A stretch of DNA of 64,000 bases from a virus. Taxonomy: Duplodnaviria; Heunggongvirae; Uroviricota; Caudoviricetes. The DNA is taken from positions 187,136 through 251,135 of the IMG/VR virus record IMGVR_UViG_3300037455_000543; one strand, given 5' to 3'. The notes under the pieces were generated by a model. The model was not told the DNA's origin. It made no database searches and saw only the letters and a list, made by a program, of their open reading frames with translations. A program made the position numbers and the translations under genes. How positions within the stretch are numbered: position 1 is the first letter of the stretch; every line of letters begins with the position of its first letter. This document shows, one piece after another, positions 3-51,139 of this stretch.

Positions 3-524
3 CGTGGCATTATTGAACGTGAAGTAAATAAGTTCCAATCACTTATTGAATCTCGTGAAGCTCTTGGTGAACTTTCTCATCCGGAATCTATCGAAATCAA
101 CCCTGACCGTTCTGCAATTCTTATTACAAGTTTGAAGATGGATGGTAATATTGCTATCGGTAAAGCTAAAGTTCTTTCTACCCCATGTGGTAAGATTCTT
201 GAATCTCTTCTTTCTGACGGCGTAAGAATGGGTGTTTCTTCTCGTGGAACTGGTAATCTCTGTGAGGATAATACAGTTGCTGACGACTACTCAATGGCGA
301 CAATCGACGCTGTTTATATGCCTTCTGCACAATGCGCTTACTCTGACCCGATGTATGAATCTGTTCAGTATGTAACAAAGTGGGTATTGAACGAAGCTAC
401 TGGTCTTTATATTGAAAAACAGGAACAGATTGTAAAGGCACAAGAAGCATTTAACAGTATTGTCGACAAACATGGTTCTAAGGTAATCATGAGTGCATTT
501 GCTGACTTCTTGAGAGCAATTTAA
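3..524 (+). CDS. gp21: Prohead core protease (T4 gp21-like), 5'-truncated by window edge
   Basis: Frame open from position 3 (RGIIEREVNKFQSLIESREALGELSHPESIEINPDR...). Motifs GELSHP and GVSSRGTG match gp21 GELxHP and VSSRGxG. Confidence 0.92.
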   Translation, partial: RGIIEREVNKFQSLIESREALGELSHPESIEINPDRSAILITSLKMDGNIAIGKAKVLSTPCGKILESLLSDGVRMGVSSRGTGNLCEDNTVADDYSMATIDAVYMPSAQCAYSDPMYESVQYVTKWVLNEATGLYIEKQEQIVKAQEAFNSIVDKHGSKVIMSAFADFLRAI

Positions 525-12219: not shown

Positions 12220-13539
12220 TTACCAAACCATGCTTTCCGGAGCCTGGTCGAAGAGGCCAGTGAACTTGAGCAAGCGATAGTAGTTTTCAGCACCAAGCAT
12301 GTTGTGTGCGAAACCATAACGGCTCATGATACCAACTCTCGGAGAGAAGTCGTTCGGGTCAATTGCCTGGTTAACAACGCCAGTAACATACGGACAGAAG
12401 ATAACACCAGCATCATAGAGGCTTGTGCCCTTGAATGCGAGGAGGATTTCGCCGTTGTCGTTAGCACCAAATTCGTCAACTGCATACTGGTCACAGAAGA
12501 TCTTAACAACACCGTTCAAAGTACCCATTTCCGGAGTAACAGCAGAGCCGTTAACTTCGTGAGCAATCTTGGTGAACCATGGGTTAGCGCACTGGAGAAC
12601 AGTAGCAACGTCCGGAGAAACAACACCGATGTTAGCTGCACCACGACGAGTAGCAGTACGGATGTCGTTTACGCCCTTCATGATGTGAGCGATAATAGTA
12701 CCAAAGCGTTCCTGAGAGTTTGTACCGATGTAACCATCGTTAGTCTGGAGTGTGGATTCAGACTTGGTATAAACACGCGGAGTACAGAGTGACTTACAAC
12801 GGCCGATAGTTTCACGGTCCATTTCAGCAGTCATTTCTGCCTGAAGAACGTTGATCATTTCGTTCATCATTTCGATACCCTGCATAGCCTTGATGTCGGC
12901 AGCGGATTCGAGAGAGAATGAAGCAGCGAGCTTACGAGTCTTAGCAACGATGCTCTGTCTGGAGAGCATAAGACCAATTTCCGGCATCTTACGGCTTACA
13001 GACGGATCGTCAGAACCGAAAGTAGGACCAGTAATCTTCCAGCCTTCAGCAGACTGAGTATCTACGCCAGTACCAGCATCCCATTCACCGTCTGTGTTGG
13101 CGGTAGAACCGGTATAGCCAGAGAAGCGAGGAACAGCCTTCCATGCAGCTTCAACGAGTTCGTTCGGGTTATTGGTCTTATAGATGTAACGGAGTGCGAA
13201 AGCAAGACCGACAGGACCAGTCAACGGCTGAACACCAACGAGGACGTTAGCGAAGAGCTGTGGGAACACACGACGAACGAGTGCGAGGGAAATCGGAGCG
13301 AAGACACCCTTAGCGTCACCACCATGAGGAATACCCTGGTCGAGACCGAGCGGTGCACCTACACCCTGAGTAAAGTCTTCGGTAAGCAATTCAGAACCGA
13401 GGTTCTTGGTTTGCTGGTTTTCCAAAAGACGAGCAGTATTATAACGGACGAGATTATCCTTAATGCCAGTGATTGAGAGTCCGCCCGGAGCTTTCTGCCA
13501 GCGGTCCATCATACCAGCTTGTGTCTTTGTAATTTTCAT
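12220..13539 (-). CDS. gp23: Major capsid protein
   Basis: LLENQ...LVRRVFPQLFANVLVGVQPLTGPVGLAFALRY...FCPYV...PRVGIMSRYG; strongly biased codons. Confidence 0.97.
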   Translation of the reverse strand: MKITKTQAGMMDRWQKAPGGLSITGIKDNLVRYNTARLLENQQTKNLGSELLTEDFTQGVGAPLGLDQGIPHGGDAKGVFAPISLALVRRVFPQLFANVLVGVQPLTGPVGLAFALRYIYKTNNPNELVEAAWKAVPRFSGYTGSTANTDGEWDAGTGVDTQSAEGWKITGPTFGSDDPSVSRKMPEIGLMLSRQSIVAKTRKLAASFSLESAADIKAMQGIEMMNEMINVLQAEMTAEMDRETIGRCKSLCTPRVYTKSESTLQTNDGYIGTNSQERFGTIIAHIMKGVNDIRTATRRGAANIGVVSPDVATVLQCANPWFTKIAHEVNGSAVTPEMGTLNGVVKIFCDQYAVDEFGANDNGEILLAFKGTSLYDAGVIFCPYVTGVVNQAIDPNDFSPRVGIMSRYGFAHNMLGAENYYRLLKFTGLFDQAPESMVW

Positions 13540-13623: not shown

Positions 13624-14613
13624 TTAGTCCTCATCAATGAGACTTGCGGAGCCCTGCATCATTCGTTCAGCAGGTGTCATTTCACGACGGGACGGTTTAA
13701 ATTTGTCGGAAAGAACATTCTTTGTGCGGTCTTCGATGAACGCAGTCTTACGAACTGGACGGTCATGATTTTCGAAGAGACGAGATCTTTCATACTTCAT
13801 GCTTTCATAAACATTTGCCTGTTCCTGAATCATGTCGATGTAAGCGTCGATGTCTTTCTTGGTTTCATTCAAGCTCTTGTCCTTGAAGAATTTCTTAACC
13901 TTTACACGCTGTTCCGGATCAAGGGTAGAAATCTTTTCAGAGATCAAAGTCTTCTTGCCCATGGTTTCGGTCAAGTCTTGCAAACGTAAGTTTTCATCAA
14001 GCTGCTTCTTAAGGGACTGTCTAATTTCAGCATTTTCCTGCTTGAGCTGACGAATCTTCTTGCCACCGCTTGTATTGAGAGGTACAAATTCATCTTCGAA
14101 GAGATGCTTGATGCCTTCAACGATCGGAGCATAAGTTTCAGACAATGCAGTCTTCTTAATAAGGGCCGGACTAATCTTTTCATTAATGTTAAATTCAAGA
14201 TACTTATCCAAACCGGTAATAACTTTTTCTTCGATAGCTTCGAGTTCTTCGCCGTACTTCTTCTTGAATTCAGTGTCAAAATATTCGCAGACGTAGTTCT
14301 GTGCAGCTTCTTCGAGTTTCTTCTTGTATGCTGCTACCTGCTTTTCAGCTTCTTCGGTAATAGCCTTACACTTTTCTTCGCAGTAACTACCAGCTACTTT
14401 TTCAATTTCAGCAGTCTTAGCTTTGACTGATTCATTGATTTTCTTCTGACAATATTCATCAGCTTTCTTGGCGACAACCTTGGCTTCTTCGTTTACTTTT
14501 TCCTGGACCTTCTCGTCAACAATGGCTTCGAATGTCTTTTTAATTTCATTCAATTCCTCAACTGAGAATTTCTGGGAAAGTGTTTCTAGGATTTTATCCA
14601 TGTATTCCTCCAA
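13624..14613 (-). CDS. gp22: Prohead core scaffold protein
   Basis: Acidic coiled coil, KTFEAIVDEKV, DKYLE, IVEGIKHLF; directly upstream of gp23. Confidence 0.85.
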   Translation of the reverse strand: MEEYMDKILETLSQKFSVEELNEIKKTFEAIVDEKVQEKVNEEAKVVAKKADEYCQKKINESVKAKTAEIEKVAGSYCEEKCKAITEEAEKQVAAYKKKLEEAAQNYVCEYFDTEFKKKYGEELEAIEEKVITGLDKYLEFNINEKISPALIKKTALSETYAPIVEGIKHLFEDEFVPLNTSGGKKIRQLKQENAEIRQSLKKQLDENLRLQDLTETMGKKTLISEKISTLDPEQRVKVKKFFKDKSLNETKKDIDAYIDMIQEQANVYESMKYERSRLFENHDRPVRKTAFIEDRTKNVLSDKFKPSRREMTPAERMMQGSASLIDED

Positions 14614-14645: not shown

Positions 14646-14653
14646 TATTTATA
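14646..14653 (-). promoter_or_regulatory. Late promoter TATAAATA for gp22-gp23
   Basis: Exact motif upstream of the GGAGG SD. Confidence 0.75.
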
Positions 14654-15405: not shown

Positions 15406-15798
15406 ATGGCAAGTTTTTCAAAATATATAGAAGAAGAAATCCAGCAGTCCATGAATGAAAATACTTCTCAAATCGGTTTGACTGATGTATTTTCTGGTTC
15501 TCCTGTAATGGGACCGCACCATCATGAATATTGGATTTACGATGAAACTGGTTACGGTAGAACAAGTGATTCTATTAATGAACCGTCTAACTTAAATGCA
15601 GAAACTCCAATTACTACTGTGGGCGGACACATTCACTTTATTAATAATGGTGTTGTTGTTCCAGCTGGTGACGGTCATACTCACAAGCTACTTGCTCCGC
15701 AGAAGGTTGACGCTGATACCAAGATTTTCAGTCATAAATGCAAAGATGGTCAATGCTGCTGTGGCGATACAATAGAAACACCGATTCGTGGAATTTAA
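15406..15798 (+). CDS. HxH-repeat (YmaF-like) metal-binding protein with capsid-targeting-like leader
   Basis: PHHHEY, GHIHFI, GHTHKL, CKDGQCCC; leader MASFSKYIEEE; TATAAATA at 15379-15386. Confidence 0.6.
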   Translation: MASFSKYIEEEIQQSMNENTSQIGLTDVFSGSPVMGPHHHEYWIYDETGYGRTSDSINEPSNLNAETPITTVGGHIHFINNGVVVPAGDGHTHKLLAPQKVDADTKIFSHKCKDGQCCCGDTIETPIRGI

Positions 15799-16913: not shown

Positions 16914-16937
16914 AAAACCTCTAATTATTTATAAAAT

Positions 16938-22498: not shown

Positions 22499-22605
22499 AA
22501 ATTAAGCCGTAACTTTGTTTTTCTATATTTATAACCTTTAACCTTATTCTTTTGTATTTATGCGGTATCTGAAAGTATAAATATATTAACAATAAGGTCT
22601 AAATA

Positions 22606-28744: not shown

Positions 28745-29605
28745 ATGATTTTTAATTGTAAAATTTGTGGATTTAGTTCAGAAGACCCTAATGCCTTTGC
28801 ACAACATATTAAAAAAGACCATCAGTTGTCAATGAAAGGCTATTATGACCAATATTTACGTAAACCGGGTGAAGGGGTCTGTCCGGTTTGTGGAAAAGAA
28901 ACCCAATACCTTACCTTAACTAAGGGTTATAGAGAATATTGTAGCATAAAATGTTCAAATTCTGTAAGACAAGCTACCAAGGTAGAAAAACAAGCTGAAC
29001 TTGAATGTAAAATATGTGGTAAAAAATTTGAGGGAACAGCACAGCAAGTAGCTGTTCAGTTCTCGAAGCACCTGAAAGAACACAATATCTATGAACCTAA
29101 AATCTATTATGACAAGTATATTAGACAGGAAGGTGAAGGTATTTGTCCAGTTTGCGGAAAAGAGACTACATTCTACAGTATTCTTAGAGGCTATGACAAA
29201 TATTGTAGCAATAAATGTGCTGGTGCTGCATTAAAAGAAGATAAAAATTCTCAACAGGGCAAACTTCATAAACTGGTCGAAGTTAAAGATAGTATTAAAA
29301 ACTTAGGTCTATCTATTATCGCAAAATATAAAAACTTTATAGCTAACGAGAAAAAACCTAAGTTTGCAGATGTAAGAACTAATCCGATTACCCACAAGAA
29401 TATTTCTACTGAAGCTACCTATGTCGACGAAAACCATAAAACCTATATGGTCAAGACGGAAATATCATGTAGCACGCAAAGACCGAATAATATAGGTAAT
29501 CAGTCAAGATATATGCCTAAATTAGAATCATGTGATCAAGAATATAAATTCGATGATATAATCGATGATAATTCTGAATTAAACGAAAGCGAATGGTGTA
29601 ATTAA
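28745..29605 (+). CDS. Zinc-finger protein with duplicated C2H2 plus CPVCG/YCSxKC module
   Basis: Two copies of CKICG...H(I/L)K.H...YYDxYxRxxGEGxCPVCGKET.....GYxxYCSxKC. Confidence 0.75.
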   Translation: MIFNCKICGFSSEDPNAFAQHIKKDHQLSMKGYYDQYLRKPGEGVCPVCGKETQYLTLTKGYREYCSIKCSNSVRQATKVEKQAELECKICGKKFEGTAQQVAVQFSKHLKEHNIYEPKIYYDKYIRQEGEGICPVCGKETTFYSILRGYDKYCSNKCAGAALKEDKNSQQGKLHKLVEVKDSIKNLGLSIIAKYKNFIANEKKPKFADVRTNPITHKNISTEATYVDENHKTYMVKTEISCSTQRPNNIGNQSRYMPKLESCDQEYKFDDIIDDNSELNESEWCN

Positions 29606-29624
29606 AAGTATAAATATATAGAAT

Positions 29625-30164
29625 ATGGAAAAACTTTGGGAAAGATTCTTTTATTCGCTCGAAGATAAGAATAGCGTATCTGGTTTAAGACGTTTGGTAA
29701 ATAATGCCGAAACGATGTCTGCTTATTTCGAAGCCAATAATATATTGGCCGAAGCAAACAGAACATTACCAATGTTAATCAGAAAGAATAAAAAAATCAA
29801 TTTAAGCTGTCATAATAGGGATATAGATAATATCCTAGTCTTTATATTTTTAAAATCGATTACAACAATTCCTACAAAGACGAAAGCATATAAGTTAGGT
29901 TTAATCAATAAGAATGGCGAGTTGATTAGAAGTCCTGAAACTCAACAAGAACATGATGCAATTTCCAATCTTGACTTGCTTATGTTTAAACTTAGGGAAT
30001 GGCTTAGACCGAAAATGTATTGTCTTGCTTCTATTAACTGGATTAGAGGCTTATACAATGATAAACGTATTCAGAATTACCTTATGAATACTGATTTCGT
30101 TTCAAGACAATATGTCGTAAGACGACTTAACAATGAATTAAATGATATTTTAAGGAAACATTGA
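29625..30164 (+). CDS. Conserved T4-like phage hypothetical (head-region) protein
   Basis: FLKSITT...TKAYKLGLINKNGE motif; TATAAATA at 29609-29616. Confidence 0.6.
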   Translation: MEKLWERFFYSLEDKNSVSGLRRLVNNAETMSAYFEANNILAEANRTLPMLIRKNKKINLSCHNRDIDNILVFIFLKSITTIPTKTKAYKLGLINKNGELIRSPETQQEHDAISNLDLLMFKLREWLRPKMYCLASINWIRGLYNDKRIQNYLMNTDFVSRQYVVRRLNNELNDILRKH

Positions 30165-30165
30165 T

Positions 30166-30438
30166 ATGCATCATCCATACTTTCCGCCTCCTCCGCCGCC
30201 ACCATGTCCTGAATGTGAAAGACTCCGTAAATCAGAATATGAAAAATATGGTTTTAATATAGTTATAGGTGGAAAGTATTGGACAAAAATTCCAGAAGTT
30301 CGTAAATGTTGTCCAATAAAGGTAACTGTAGTAGAAAGTACAGCTAAAGAAATAACTGTTGACTTTAACGGTGTAAAATTTACGAAAGATAGAGCGGAAT
30401 TCTTAAAATCAAGTTGGCGAGACTATGACGCTTTTTAA
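30166..30438 (+). CDS. Hypothetical protein with poly-Pro N-terminus
   Basis: HHPYFPPPPPPPCPEC; tightly coupled to neighbours. Confidence 0.55.
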   Translation: MHHPYFPPPPPPPCPECERLRKSEYEKYGFNIVIGGKYWTKIPEVRKCCPIKVTVVESTAKEITVDFNGVKFTKDRAEFLKSSWRDYDAF

Positions 30439-30829
30439 AATAAATGTTGAACAGGCAACTGAAATATTAAATAATTGTCTGCAAAAATATTTTAAACAAT
30501 TAAAACCTATAAAAATAAGTGTCGAACCTATAAATGAGTTCGGCATATTTAAATTTGATATATCCGGAAATTCTTTTATAAATCCACAAATAATAATTTC
30601 AAATAAAAGTTTTAGAACTGAAAATAGCTATAAGAATACTATTCTACATGAACTCATACATTATTCTGTATTTTCTGATTTAAAACCTGATGAAATAAGT
30701 GAAGCCATATCATCAAACAATCAAGATTTATTTGACAGAATAACTGAAACAGGCAAATATGCACATGGTGAAAAATGGAATTCTAAAAAAACTACTATAA
30801 ATAATATATACAATTTGAATATAAGGTAA
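30425..30829 (+). CDS. SprT-like zinc metalloprotease
   Basis: NTILHELIHY...HGEKW. Confidence 0.8.
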   Translation: MTLFKINVEQATEILNNCLQKYFKQLKPIKISVEPINEFGIFKFDISGNSFINPQIIISNKSFRTENSYKNTILHELIHYSVFSDLKPDEISEAISSNNQDLFDRITETGKYAHGEKWNSKKTTINNIYNLNIR

Positions 30830-30832
30830 AAA

Positions 30833-31417
30833 ATGGCAGATTTTTTAGAAAATGAAGACGATTTAATATTAGATGAAGACTTCAGTATGGGTGTTGGCGG
30901 ACCTTGTGGCCTTGATCAAGGCATTCCACATGGCGGCGATTGCAAAGGTTGTTGTCCACAAAGAATGGGGTTATATCAACGTTCTCCATTTTCTGTAAAT
31001 CCATTCTTTGCCGGTGTTGCTGCAGCGCATCATCCTGGTTATTGGCTAGGACAGATTCCTAAGAAGAAAAAACGTCGTAAAAAGAAACGCCGTAAACTTC
31101 ATGAAGACTTTGGTGCTGAACAACGTGTTAAAGAACGCCAAGAATTAATGAATTCTTTGAAAAAGCCATGTTTTGCAATTTATTACAAGCTTTTTGGTAA
31201 AGAAGACTGTGCAGCAGAACATGTAGATACCGAAGAACTCTATCAGCATTTCTGTACAGGTTTTGATAACGATATTACTCCACCAATTAGGTCTTATGAA
31301 ATTGGTAAATTCGCTAGAAGACTTTCAAAAATGATATATGACAAAGATGATCTTGAATTGGCACTTGCACACTTTAAAAAGGAAGTAAAATTACACGGTA
31401 AATTACTTGCTGCATAA
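30833..31417 (+). CDS. Protein with major-capsid N-arm mimic and polybasic tract
   Basis: LDE-DFSMGVGGPCGLDQGIPHGGDCKG vs gp23 LTE-DFTQGVGAPLGLDQGIPHGGDAKG; KKKKRRKKKRRK. Confidence 0.75.
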   Translation: MADFLENEDDLILDEDFSMGVGGPCGLDQGIPHGGDCKGCCPQRMGLYQRSPFSVNPFFAGVAAAHHPGYWLGQIPKKKKRRKKKRRKLHEDFGAEQRVKERQELMNSLKKPCFAIYYKLFGKEDCAAEHVDTEELYQHFCTGFDNDITPPIRSYEIGKFARRLSKMIYDKDDLELALAHFKKEVKLHGKLLAA

Positions 31418-31426
31418 AAAATTTTA

Positions 31427-31822
31427 GTGAGCGTTTATATGGATGTGAAGACTCAGCAGTTAAATATAATAATGGAAGCTATCCGACAAATAGTCCGTGT
31501 AAAAACTTGCCCGCCTTGGGTTGTCGGTAAACTTACTGATGCAGTAAAGAAAGCAAAGACTTTAACAGATGAAAATACATCTGGAACGTCTGATTTTTCT
31601 GAATATGAAATTGATTATACATATAGACCTTTTGAAATCGATGAAAAGGCTATAAGCTCTGTCGAAGGCGACAAATGTCTTTATCAAATTATGAGTATTT
31701 GTGATCCAATCAATGGCGTGAATTTATATAATATAAAAATTATCAAAGGGGACAAAAACAATCCTGCCGGATATATTGTTTACAATGTTCCCGAAACAAA
31801 ACTACAGCACATAAAGGTATAA
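31427..31822 (+). CDS. Hypothetical protein (alternative ATG start at 31439)
   Basis: ORF inside a co-directional cluster. Confidence 0.55.
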   Translation: MSVYMDVKTQQLNIIMEAIRQIVRVKTCPPWVVGKLTDAVKKAKTLTDENTSGTSDFSEYEIDYTYRPFEIDEKAISSVEGDKCLYQIMSICDPINGVNLYNIKIIKGDKNNPAGYIVYNVPETKLQHIKV

Positions 31823-31824
31823 TT

Positions 31825-32349
31825 ATGGCAAAACATGTAAACAGACCATCAAATTTAAGGAGGATTATAGTGAAAAGAAATTTTGATGCTCTTTATAACT
31901 CAAGAAACACAGATCAGCAATATACAGAACAGGATATGCAGCATTTAAAGTTGATTGAACCTAATGCTGTTCTTCCACGTGGTTATACAAAAATTCCTAG
32001 AATACCACGTTCACCAAGAATTGTTAGTAGACCTGCACTTGATAGCTTCGAAAATGAATATCAGGCATTTATTGCTAAACTCAAAGCAAAGAAAGCAGAA
32101 AAGGCAGAAGAAGAAAAAATTCAAGAACAGCTAGATGCTGCAAATGCAGTTGAGACTGTTCAAGAACCGATTACTGAACCTGTAGAGGAAACACAAAATG
32201 AAATTATCACAGAAACTCCAATCGTTGAAATCGAAGAAACACAAGAGACTGTTAAACCAGTTAAAAAGACTCGAAAATCGAAGAAAACGGTGGTTGAACC
32301 AACTGACACGGTAACTGAAACAATAGAAACTGCTGAAACTGCAGAATAA
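31825..32349 (+). CDS. Hypothetical protein, basic N-terminus and Glu/Thr-rich tail
   Basis: PRGYTKIPRIPRSPR; EET repeats. Confidence 0.6.
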   Translation: MAKHVNRPSNLRRIIVKRNFDALYNSRNTDQQYTEQDMQHLKLIEPNAVLPRGYTKIPRIPRSPRIVSRPALDSFENEYQAFIAKLKAKKAEKAEEEKIQEQLDAANAVETVQEPITEPVEETQNEIITETPIVEIEETQETVKPVKKTRKSKKTVVEPTDTVTETIETAETAE

Positions 32350-49855: not shown

Positions 49856-51139
49856 ATGGAACTTAAAGAAGCAAAACACATTCTTGAATCATTAGGTTAC
49901 AATATTAAAAACCCGTTCATGAATGAAGAGAAGCAGTATCTTACTGAACTCATGGCTCGTTTTAATGGTAACTATACTGGTCGTTTTAAAGGCCTCCAGG
50001 ATGCAGGTGATGTAACTATCCAACTTGCAAAAGGTAACAAGACAGAAGAAGTTGCTAAGGCACTTTCTGACGTAGATAACAACTTCCAGTCTGCCATGAC
50101 TACTGGTATCAAGACTACCCAGACTGAAAAGCTCGCAAACCTTATCAATAACTATACAGCTATCTATAATGTCATTAAGGATATTCCTGACGCAAATCCG
50201 GAAACTGTCCAAGACTTAGAGAAGAAGATTGGCTGGCTTGAACAGAAGCAAAATGACGGTGAAGAAATCGTAGCAGGTGAATGGAAGGCTGCAGGTCTCG
50301 CAACTACAACACACTCTACCGATGACAACGCACTTGACTTCAATACATTGGTAAAGAATATTTCTGCACAGATTAGCTCTCTTAAGTCCAAGGGCGGAAA
50401 CAATACTGAACAGATTGTTGCACGTATTGAAGACCTTGCAAATCGTGAAGGTTTGACTCAGGCTCAGCTCGATAAGGTTGAAGAACTTCGCGCTAAGCTC
50501 GATGTTGCTACTGCAGCAGGCGCAAGAGCCGCAGCAGCACGTGGTCGTGCATTGACATTTAAGTCCGATAGACCGTTAAAGGTTACTCGTGCTATCCGTA
50601 GACTTACCGCTCTCGCTATCAATTTCACACAGAATGAAGATGGTTCTGTTACTGTTAACGATACACCAAGAAAGGTTGAAAAAGCTCGTGAAGAACTTAC
50701 TGCTATCGGTGTTGAATTTGTTGAAGCTCAGGCTCCTGCCGAAGAACAACCTATAACAGTCAAGCTTACATTCGGTGATGAAGACTCCTTAGCTATCGCA
50801 CTTGAAGAAGCACAAAATGCTGGTGTAACTGCTGAACAGGCAGAAGATGGTAACTTAACTGCCGCATTCACTGGTACTCAAGCTGCACTTGCTAGTTTCG
50901 AAGAAGCTATCTCGCAGATTGAAGGTGTCGAATTTAGAAAGGCTGGTGATGAAGAACCTGACCTAAATAACGAAGAAGATAACGGCGAAAGGATGGAAGA
51001 CAGTACTAAGGTCGAAACACCGAAAGAACCTGAAATGAACGAATCTACAGAAAAGTCTGAAGATACACAGGAAACTGAAACTCTTGATGAATCTGTAGAC
51101 CCAGTATTAGAAAAAGCTGCAGGCTTACTTCTTTGGTAA
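49856..51139 (+). CDS. Putative abundant internal/ejection protein
   Basis: MELKEAKHILESLGY...YLTE leader; Ala/Glu-rich with biased codons; tandem TATAAATA at 49817-49833. Confidence 0.6.
   Translation: MELKEAKHILESLGYNIKNPFMNEEKQYLTELMARFNGNYTGRFKGLQDAGDVTIQLAKGNKTEEVAKALSDVDNNFQSAMTTGIKTTQTEKLANLINNYTAIYNVIKDIPDANPETVQDLEKKIGWLEQKQNDGEEIVAGEWKAAGLATTTHSTDDNALDFNTLVKNISAQISSLKSKGGNNTEQIVARIEDLANREGLTQAQLDKVEELRAKLDVATAAGARAAAARGRALTFKSDRPLKVTRAIRRLTALAINFTQNEDGSVTVNDTPRKVEKAREELTAIGVEFVEAQAPAEEQPITVKLTFGDEDSLAIALEEAQNAGVTAEQAEDGNLTAAFTGTQAALASFEEAISQIEGVEFRKAGDEEPDLNNEEDNGERMEDSTKVETPKEPEMNESTEKSEDTQETETLDESVDPVLEKAAGLLLW

Follow-up and report, generated by a model that had tools for sequence, protein, structure and literature searches.

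It has been shown that, in bacteriophage T4, the first 65 residues of the major capsid protein (MCP) gp23 are removed by the protease gp21 (PMC9546572). The segment that follows, residues 66-91, is the N-fist (PMC7136217; PMC9958956), which contacts four subunits, two in its own capsomer and two in the neighbouring capsomer (PMC9958956), and which is disordered where it faces the portal (PMC7136217). In the unexpanded T4 head, gp23* 66-105 lies inside and disordered, probably on the scaffold, and on expansion it moves outward and becomes the N-arm and N-fist; the mutations A66D, A94V and G97S in the N-terminal region of gp23 alter head length, and this region is thought to touch the scaffold (PMC9546572). 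The protease gp21 cuts after Glu, and Asp at P1 is not processed (PMC9026906). Its substrates include the T4 internal proteins, from which an N-terminal propeptide of 10-19 residues is cut after (L/I)xE, and Alt, which is cleaved at both ends (PMC9026906). The targeting part of the internal proteins is conserved while the remainder is diverse (PMC3012670).

T4 also carries gene 61.1 (Table 1), whose product begins with a 10-residue leader ending in KE10 and followed by D11. Residues 2-38 of gp61.1 align without gaps to residues 57-93 of gp23 (E = 6e-9) with the two cleavage sites superposed, and then comes EQIPKKKK; T-even relatives keep QIP[KSA]KK[KRQ] together with a basic tail. In the T6-type homologues of 62 aa this basic tail is longer (KKKKRNLKKKKSK...), and that of T4 turns acidic after KKKK. 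Some relatives of gp61.1 carry the database name 'major capsid domain-containing protein'. Neither Pfam nor PHROG holds a family for T4 gp61.1 or for the long members of the family described below, and in the searchable literature gp61.1 and the N-fist mimic receive passing mentions only. T4 head assembly is among the best-studied of such pathways, and we know of no role in it that has been assigned to a detached copy of the N-fist. In adenovirus, pre-Mu/pX and pVII give rise to small, very basic peptides that are cut from a precursor by the maturation protease inside the capsid and are associated with the DNA.

The locus analysed here belongs to a T4-like phage from ruminant gut, whose virus record of 424,163 bp has direct terminal repeats and 35% G+C. 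The window, that is, the whole stretch of 64,000 nucleotides that was analysed, corresponds to bases 187136-251135 of this record and contains the structural region, with genes for the protease, MCP, scaffold, sheath, portal and baseplate wedge. Within it we find an ORF whose product can be divided into an acidic leader, a copy of the MCP N-fist, a linker, a polybasic tract and a C-terminal domain (Table 1). An earlier note on this DNA had let the ORF end at 31120, which is wrong; the true ORF is 30833-31417, position 31120 reflects only the second LHE-DF site, and beyond this site there is a helical domain of 103 residues that had gone unnoticed. The 12-residue K/R tract is the sole tract of that length in the entire 424-kb genome. 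The peptide predicted to lie between the two putative cleavage sites, D16-E91, would have 76 aa and 8.4 kDa, with 15 K/R and a pI of about 10.

Table 1. Coordinates of the precursor gene, of its parts and of the genes compared with it (window positions, unless another record is given)
Feature	Position	Strand	Remarks
Precursor ORF	30833..31417	+	194 aa; coordinates include the stop codon
Shine-Dalgarno-like AAGGT	30823..30827	+	6 nt before ATG; read from the sequence
Acidic leader, aa 1-15, ending in LDE15 (putative protease site 1, cut before D16)	30833..30877	+	
MCP N-fist copy, aa 16-40	30878..30952	+	BLASTP, profile-profile and codon alignment
Linker, aa 41-76	30953..31060	+	Cys/His/aromatic, conserved, ends in YWLGQIP
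Polybasic tract, aa 77-88	31061..31096	+	12 consecutive K/R
LHE91, putative protease site 2 (cut before D92)	31097..31105	+	
Accessory C-terminal helical bundle, aa 92-194	31106..31414	+	AF2
T4-type late promoter box TATAAATA	30796..30803	+	37 nt before ATG, within the 3' end of the preceding gene
Prohead maturation protease, gp21 family	3..524	+	5' end just upstream of the window; phrog_207, E = 4.8e-39
MCP, Gp23 family	12220..13539	-	439 aa; Pfam PF07068, E = 1.2e-67; PDB T4 gp23, E = 1.5e-25
MCP residues 54-78 (maturation-site P1 Glu and copied N-fist)	13306..13380	-	
Acidic scaffolding-core protein, T4 gp22-like	13624..14613	-	PF25623 T4_CASP, E = 2.6e-7
T4 gene 61.1	NC_000866 18966-19130	-	54-aa product NP_049649.1, 'hypothetical protein'

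Searches with the ORF itself returned little. No Pfam or PHROG family was matched, and a tblastn search of 50,697 phage records gave zero matches. In the AF2 model, residues 1-90 are predicted to be disordered, the N-fist copy alone having a pLDDT below 50, and residues 93-193 form a five-helix bundle predicted with confidence (pLDDT of about 90). A fold search with this model against PDB and BFVD found nothing at E <= 0.001, the C-terminal domain had no usable match in the atlas feature search, and the profile search of PDB with the core gave a chance-level match only.

The MCP of this phage has only about 32% identity to any MCP in the searched phage collection; its metagenomic relatives number in the hundreds and come from contigs as long as about 420 kb. 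The earlier note had reported a match between this MCP and the ORF, and on recomputation it holds: 20 out of 25 residues are identical between ORF residues 15-39 (window 30875-30949) and MCP residues 54-78. The details given with it stand as well, since both motifs come after an LxE (LDE15 in the ORF, LTE54 in the MCP), two of the substitutions place Cys at positions of L and A with GCC next, and a 12-residue K/R tract (aa 77-88) lies ahead of the second site, LHE91 followed by DF. BLASTP aligned residues 2-68 of the ORF with residues 36-105 of the MCP (46% identity, E = 2e-13), and the profile-profile comparison aligned residues 12-50 with MCP residues 51-90 at a probability of 99.2% (E = 6.6e-20). 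The first part of the linker shows a weak alignment with the MCP N-arm (MCP 79-90).

The gp23-type propeptide site that had been assumed for the MCP was found where T4 has it. In the HMMER alignment of the two proteins, 33 residues lead from the LTE site to VRR in both without a gap, and with the conserved VRR..P..GVQP block as anchor the sites fall into register, between E54 and D55 here (LTE54) and between E65 and A66 in T4 (LTE65). From this shared register it follows that the copy in the ORF begins with P4-P1 of the maturation site, goes on through the first 25 mature residues and reaches into the start of the N-arm. In this sub-clade BLASTP also pairs ADFLEN with ARLLEN, so that the leader could be taken for a piece of the MCP propeptide; this reading was left as weak, since the profile alignment begins only at P4. 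Compared with gp23* 66-105 of T4, the copied segment has the homologous position, comprising the first 25 residues after the maturation site and then the N-arm start, and both are Glu-poor and flexible alone. It differs in being detached from the HK97-fold body and followed by a polybasic tail instead: the ORF has no PF07068 match, its alignment spans no more than 39 N-terminal columns, the rest is disordered or a helical bundle, and the HK97-fold body (P, A and I domains) by which the Gp23 family PF07068 is recognised is lacking. Being detached from this body, the copy cannot be a lattice subunit. A complex prediction with two copies of MCP 88-439 and the core 16-78, run with alignments and without controls, gave a score of 0.00, which speaks neither for nor against binding.

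At the nucleotide level the two segments are far apart. Codons differ at 14 of the 20 identical residues, the six shared ones comparing with 9.8 expected for independent draws at local usage. Silent sites are thus saturated, which indicates that selection acts on the protein, as the earlier note had concluded from the synonymous divergence, and the divergence of the codons rules out a recent duplication or gene conversion. Gly codons are mostly GGT in the MCP (13306-13377) and GGC in the mimic (30878-30952), a contrast consistent with unequal expression or with a long history apart.

Of the systems described above, T4 gene 61.1 is the one to which the ORF is closest in layout. In both proteins a short leader ends in xxE and is followed by Asp (LDE15 and D16 in the window ORF), the next ~25 residues copy the N-fist of the resident MCP, the MCP maturation site being in register, and QIP is followed by a K/R-rich tail (GQIP and 12 K/R in the window ORF). 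Direct similarity, however, is restricted to QIPKKKK (hhalign, 10 columns, probability 17.7%), as would be expected if each copy mirrors its own MCP, and because of this restriction the orthology is read from the layout. The megaphage form, moreover, adds a 36-residue Cys/His/aromatic linker, a second cleavage site and a helical domain of 103 aa, and its basic run consists of 12-15 K/R versus 4-9 in the gp61.1 group of T4. The genes also differ in their setting, as T4 61.1 adjoins the primase gene (61) with no late box nearby, whereas the megaphage gene is found in a late structural cluster and has its own late box. By its layout the megaphage ORF appears to be the counterpart of T4 gene 61.1, a parallel that the earlier note had missed.

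With the T4 internal proteins IPI-III and Alt, which are basic head-internal proteins made from precursors, the ORF shares a leader that has the form of a propeptide, with 15 residues and LDE at its end. Unlike in those proteins, the conserved part of the ORF is the predicted mature peptide and not the leader, and it copies the capsid protein; there is no sequence similarity in the form of a PHROG or Pfam match, and packaging of the ORF product into the head would be by analogy with them. The adenovirus core peptides offer an analogy and no homology, as they belong to another virus lineage, depend on another protease and do not mimic a capsid protein.

Homologues were collected by a word-index search, which yielded 52, and sites and regions were counted over 51 of them. 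A profile run against 1.84 billion representatives brought up 75, mostly small proteins, and the family comprises 52 close and about 60 more distant members. Conservation is concentrated in the core (aa 16-91), which is about 85% conserved in the 51 homologues, while leaders and C-terminal parts are variable or missing. Mean pairwise identity among the homologues is 0.45 in the leader, 0.88 in the N-fist copy, 0.81 in the linker, 0.67 in the basic tract and 0.32 in the C-terminal domain. Leader length varies between 5 and about 300 aa, and that of the C-terminal part between 0 and about 190 aa. Neither part is related between subgroups, and the C-terminal domain found here gives way to another or is missing elsewhere in the family. 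Where no C-terminal extension follows, the protein terminates at or just past the basic tract, and members that consist of leader and core only have 67-104 aa. The basic tract is present in nearly all members of the family and is often the C-terminus of the protein, and YWLxQIP followed by K/R is nearly invariant in the megaphage family. The idea of a conserved zinc site was dropped, since the subgroups do not share the Cys and His residues.

The boundaries of the core coincide with the putative cleavage sites. At site 1, 50 of the 51 homologues have [LIVM]xE and then DF, and at site 2 a Glu follows the basic tract, mostly as LxE, in 50/51. Between the first cut and the basic tract, the 51 cores contain 5 Glu versus 186 Asp in 3072 residues, and Glu per 100 aa amounts to 13.3 in the leaders and 7.9 in the suffixes. 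Glu is also absent from the first 39-76 mature residues in 31 of 32 MCPs. A nearly Glu-free core with Glu-rich flanks is the mark to be expected of a segment that survives a Glu-specific protease while its flanks are removed. A gp21-type protease, which the earlier note had presupposed, is present in the genome, where besides the phrog_207 match there is a Pfam match to PF03420 (E = 8.3e-30) at genome positions 186997-187491. Processing of the precursor by the head protease is therefore something we infer with good support, and the predicted release of a peptide of ~76 aa, first put forward in the earlier note, gains comparative backing from the flanking [LIVM]xE sites, the near-Glu-free core and the variable or absent flanks.

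In most relatives the leader of the mimic precursor is a 17-residue tag, M-x-L-x-E-A-x-x-[IL]-L-x-x-x-G-Y-x-[VI], which the copy in this genome lacks. The tag occurs in at least 12 ORFs of the phage, either at exactly residues 2-18 or at the extreme C-terminus, and its strict pattern gave 7 matches versus 0.02 in shuffled ORFs. N-terminal copies are located at genome positions 75735, 80279, 148935, 156811(-), 275129(-), 286069(-) and 422941(-), C-terminal ones at 99248, 109304, 148804 and 343238, and in the window the tag-bearing ORF is 49856-51139 (+). By analogy with the CTS of T4, the tag is a candidate for a clade-specific removable targeting propeptide.

The context of the gene is that of late structural genes. 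The box upstream of it, TATAAATA, occurs 28 times in the window versus 14.6 expected, i.e. twice chance, and nearly all of these boxes are found 12-45 nt before ORF starts in the correct orientation, the scaffold, portal and sheath genes being among those that have one; examples are 14646-14653 (-), 16926-16933 (-), 22526-22533 (-) and 30796-30803 (+). Given this distribution, the late promoters of the phage appear to be of the T4 type. Of 16 related loci, 9, a distant one among them, have a box 35-42 nt ahead of the mimic gene. The gene is part of a late cluster (28745-32349, +) whose order is kept across clades and which encodes, in this order, a zinc-finger/HNH-like protein of 286 aa, proteins of 179 aa and 90 aa, a SprT-like zincin of 134 aa, the mimic, and proteins of 131 aa and 174 aa. 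The 179-aa protein shows 51-94% identity even in distant clades and belongs to a PHROG of unknown function, the 90-aa protein has a Pro run and a CPEC motif, and the zincin has HELIH and a Pfam score of 25.1 bits, slightly below the cut-off. Contigs from RNA libraries of sheep and bovine gut (2 studies, three runs) cover parts of the gene with up to 100% identity; they are no proof of transcription, since such libraries can contain DNA and the contigs lack information on RNA ends and expression levels. Within the same structural region, the gp22-like scaffold protein is a candidate partner in the prohead. No gp24-type vertex paralogue of the MCP was detected genome-wide, the second-best PF07068 match having 14.7 bits (genome 50550-50669); the pentons may be built of the MCP, or there may be a vertex protein that has diverged strongly.

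The earlier note had proposed co-conservation of the two motifs across related phages as a check, and this was passed by both the MCP relatives and the pairs of copy and MCP taken from the same record; the MCP motif is kept down to 53% overall MCP identity. Whether the copy follows its own MCP was examined with such same-record pairs over 28 positions. In a clade of ~245 kb, represented by two genomes (records of 247,923 and 243,336 bp), the copy agrees with its own MCP at 23-24 of the 28 positions versus 14-16 for the MCPs of other clades, and copy and MCP share the derived GLNQ and GGPGKG. In the clade of a 71-kb contig the values are 21/28 for the own MCP versus 15-17 for others, with GADQ and KAV shared. 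Strict one-to-one tracking had to be rejected in the clade of the window, where the copy matches its own MCP at 19/28 and others at 17-19, the MCP of the ~245-kb clade being equally close (19/28), and where a relative of 415,750 bp shows GADQ in the copy as opposed to GLDQ in its MCP. Pairs of copy and MCP share 8-13 codons among 19-24 identical residues, and there is an AGC/TCG serine switch between them.

Tracking of the resident MCP is thus real but partial. It could have come about by co-evolution on a shared partner or by ancient re-duplication, and with either origin selection holds the copy close to the resident N-fist. In the ~245-kb clade the N-fist copy has no polybasic run; it is followed by a mixed Lys/acidic stretch and by AKKLLKNEGF, a motif similar to the terminal tag, so that the same copied head segment carries another module downstream. 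For the GGPGKG subgroup, the single-protein scan of IMG/VR gave nothing and one MCP contig of the subgroup had no copy within 10 kb; the copies of this subgroup were recovered by an alignment-based scan.

We propose, with a probability of about one half, that a late-expressed precursor is loaded into the assembling prohead and gives rise there to a basic head peptide. The gp21-type Glu-specific protease would cut after LDE15 and LHE91, removing the acidic leader and the C-terminal domain, and would leave a product of 76 residues and 8.4 kDa with almost no Glu. Since this peptide carries a copy of the N-fist, its first 25 residues would use the docking partner of the real one, either the MCP lattice or the scaffolding core, and its tail of 12-15 K/R would bind a polyanion, the acidic core at first and the packaged DNA later. 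Prohead loading, cleavage, retention in the head, docking and DNA binding are all steps that we infer from comparison of sequences. Because the mature N-fist of T4 is external, a peptide bound to DNA would have to thread through the shell or else act at the prohead stage. This topology, the partial tracking, the ~245-kb clade without a polybasic run, the restriction of the gp61.1 similarity to QIPKKKK and the position of T4 61.1 in a primase cluster with no late box nearby speak against the head-peptide reading.

Some of these same observations fit a product that is not kept in the virion. As an assembly-time decoy or regulator, the N-fist copy might compete for the scaffolding core, the protease or a chaperone and so time the maturation cleavage or expansion, or influence the size of a very large capsid, to be degraded or expelled afterwards. 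The cleavage site itself is part of what is copied, the mimic tracks its own MCP, T4 61.1 is outside a late transcription unit, and the gp23 mutations in the region thought to touch the scaffold alter head length (PMC9546572). We nonetheless regard this as rather unlikely, as a decoy has no obvious need for a protease-resistant Glu-free core of 76 residues or a conserved tail of 12-15 K/R, and the late box and the structural-gene context suit a structural product. That the core is instead an elaborate targeting sequence, delivering a variable and functional cargo into the capsid for injection, is suggested by a conserved module beside highly variable domains of up to ~300 aa, as in the T4 internal proteins (PMC3012670; PMC9026906), and by the predicted well-folded helical bundle at the C-terminus here. 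However, many members are cargo-free, with leader and core only in 67-104 aa, the 76-aa core is far longer and far more conserved than a CTS of 10-19 residues, and in most relatives a distinct short tag, apparently the real targeting leader, already precedes it, all of which makes delivery improbable.

The polybasic tail, the predicted intrinsic disorder of the core and the place of T4 61.1 among replication genes would also suit a function outside the capsid, in which a basic, nucleic-acid-binding late protein senses or binds free MCP or a chaperone, possibly giving feedback on the synthesis or folding of the capsid protein, or condenses DNA before packaging. We give little credit to this, since the strict [LIVM]xE boundaries, the avoidance of Glu with Asp tolerated and the dispensable flanks would be left unexplained. 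Homology to the 5' part of the MCP gene only might finally suggest a decaying, functionless remnant of a partial duplication, the chance of which is next to nil: 52 close and ~60 distant members, an identity of 0.88 in the copy with saturated silent sites and the conserved promoter box and synteny already refute it. Returning to the head peptide, a more specific and quite speculative picture, improbable in our view, is that the free N-fist plugs empty sockets of the lattice, e.g. beside the vertices or the portal, sites at which the N-fists of T4 are known to be partnerless, while the basic tail holds DNA or threads the shell. It would then be a DNA-to-shell rivet co-evolving with the MCP, and a head component common to phages from T4 (gp61.1) through the 400-kb rumen megaphages.

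A copy of the N-fist is found far outside the T-even phages, under strong protein-level selection, following its own MCP in two clades and bearing a clear signature of two cuts by the head protease. It is possibly an overlooked head component, which, if true, would add a new element to how the capsid is stabilised or the DNA organised, could matter for holding very large genomes (400 kb) in a T4-type shell and would give T4 gene 61.1 a function. For engineered T4 heads, the module might be of use as a packaging handle as well.

Elsewhere in the window, an ORF of 130 aa behind a late box (15406-15798, +) has a PHHHEYW motif and a Cys cluster, CKDGQCCCGD, which by eye loosely recall AHHPGYW and CKGCC in the linker of the mimic.
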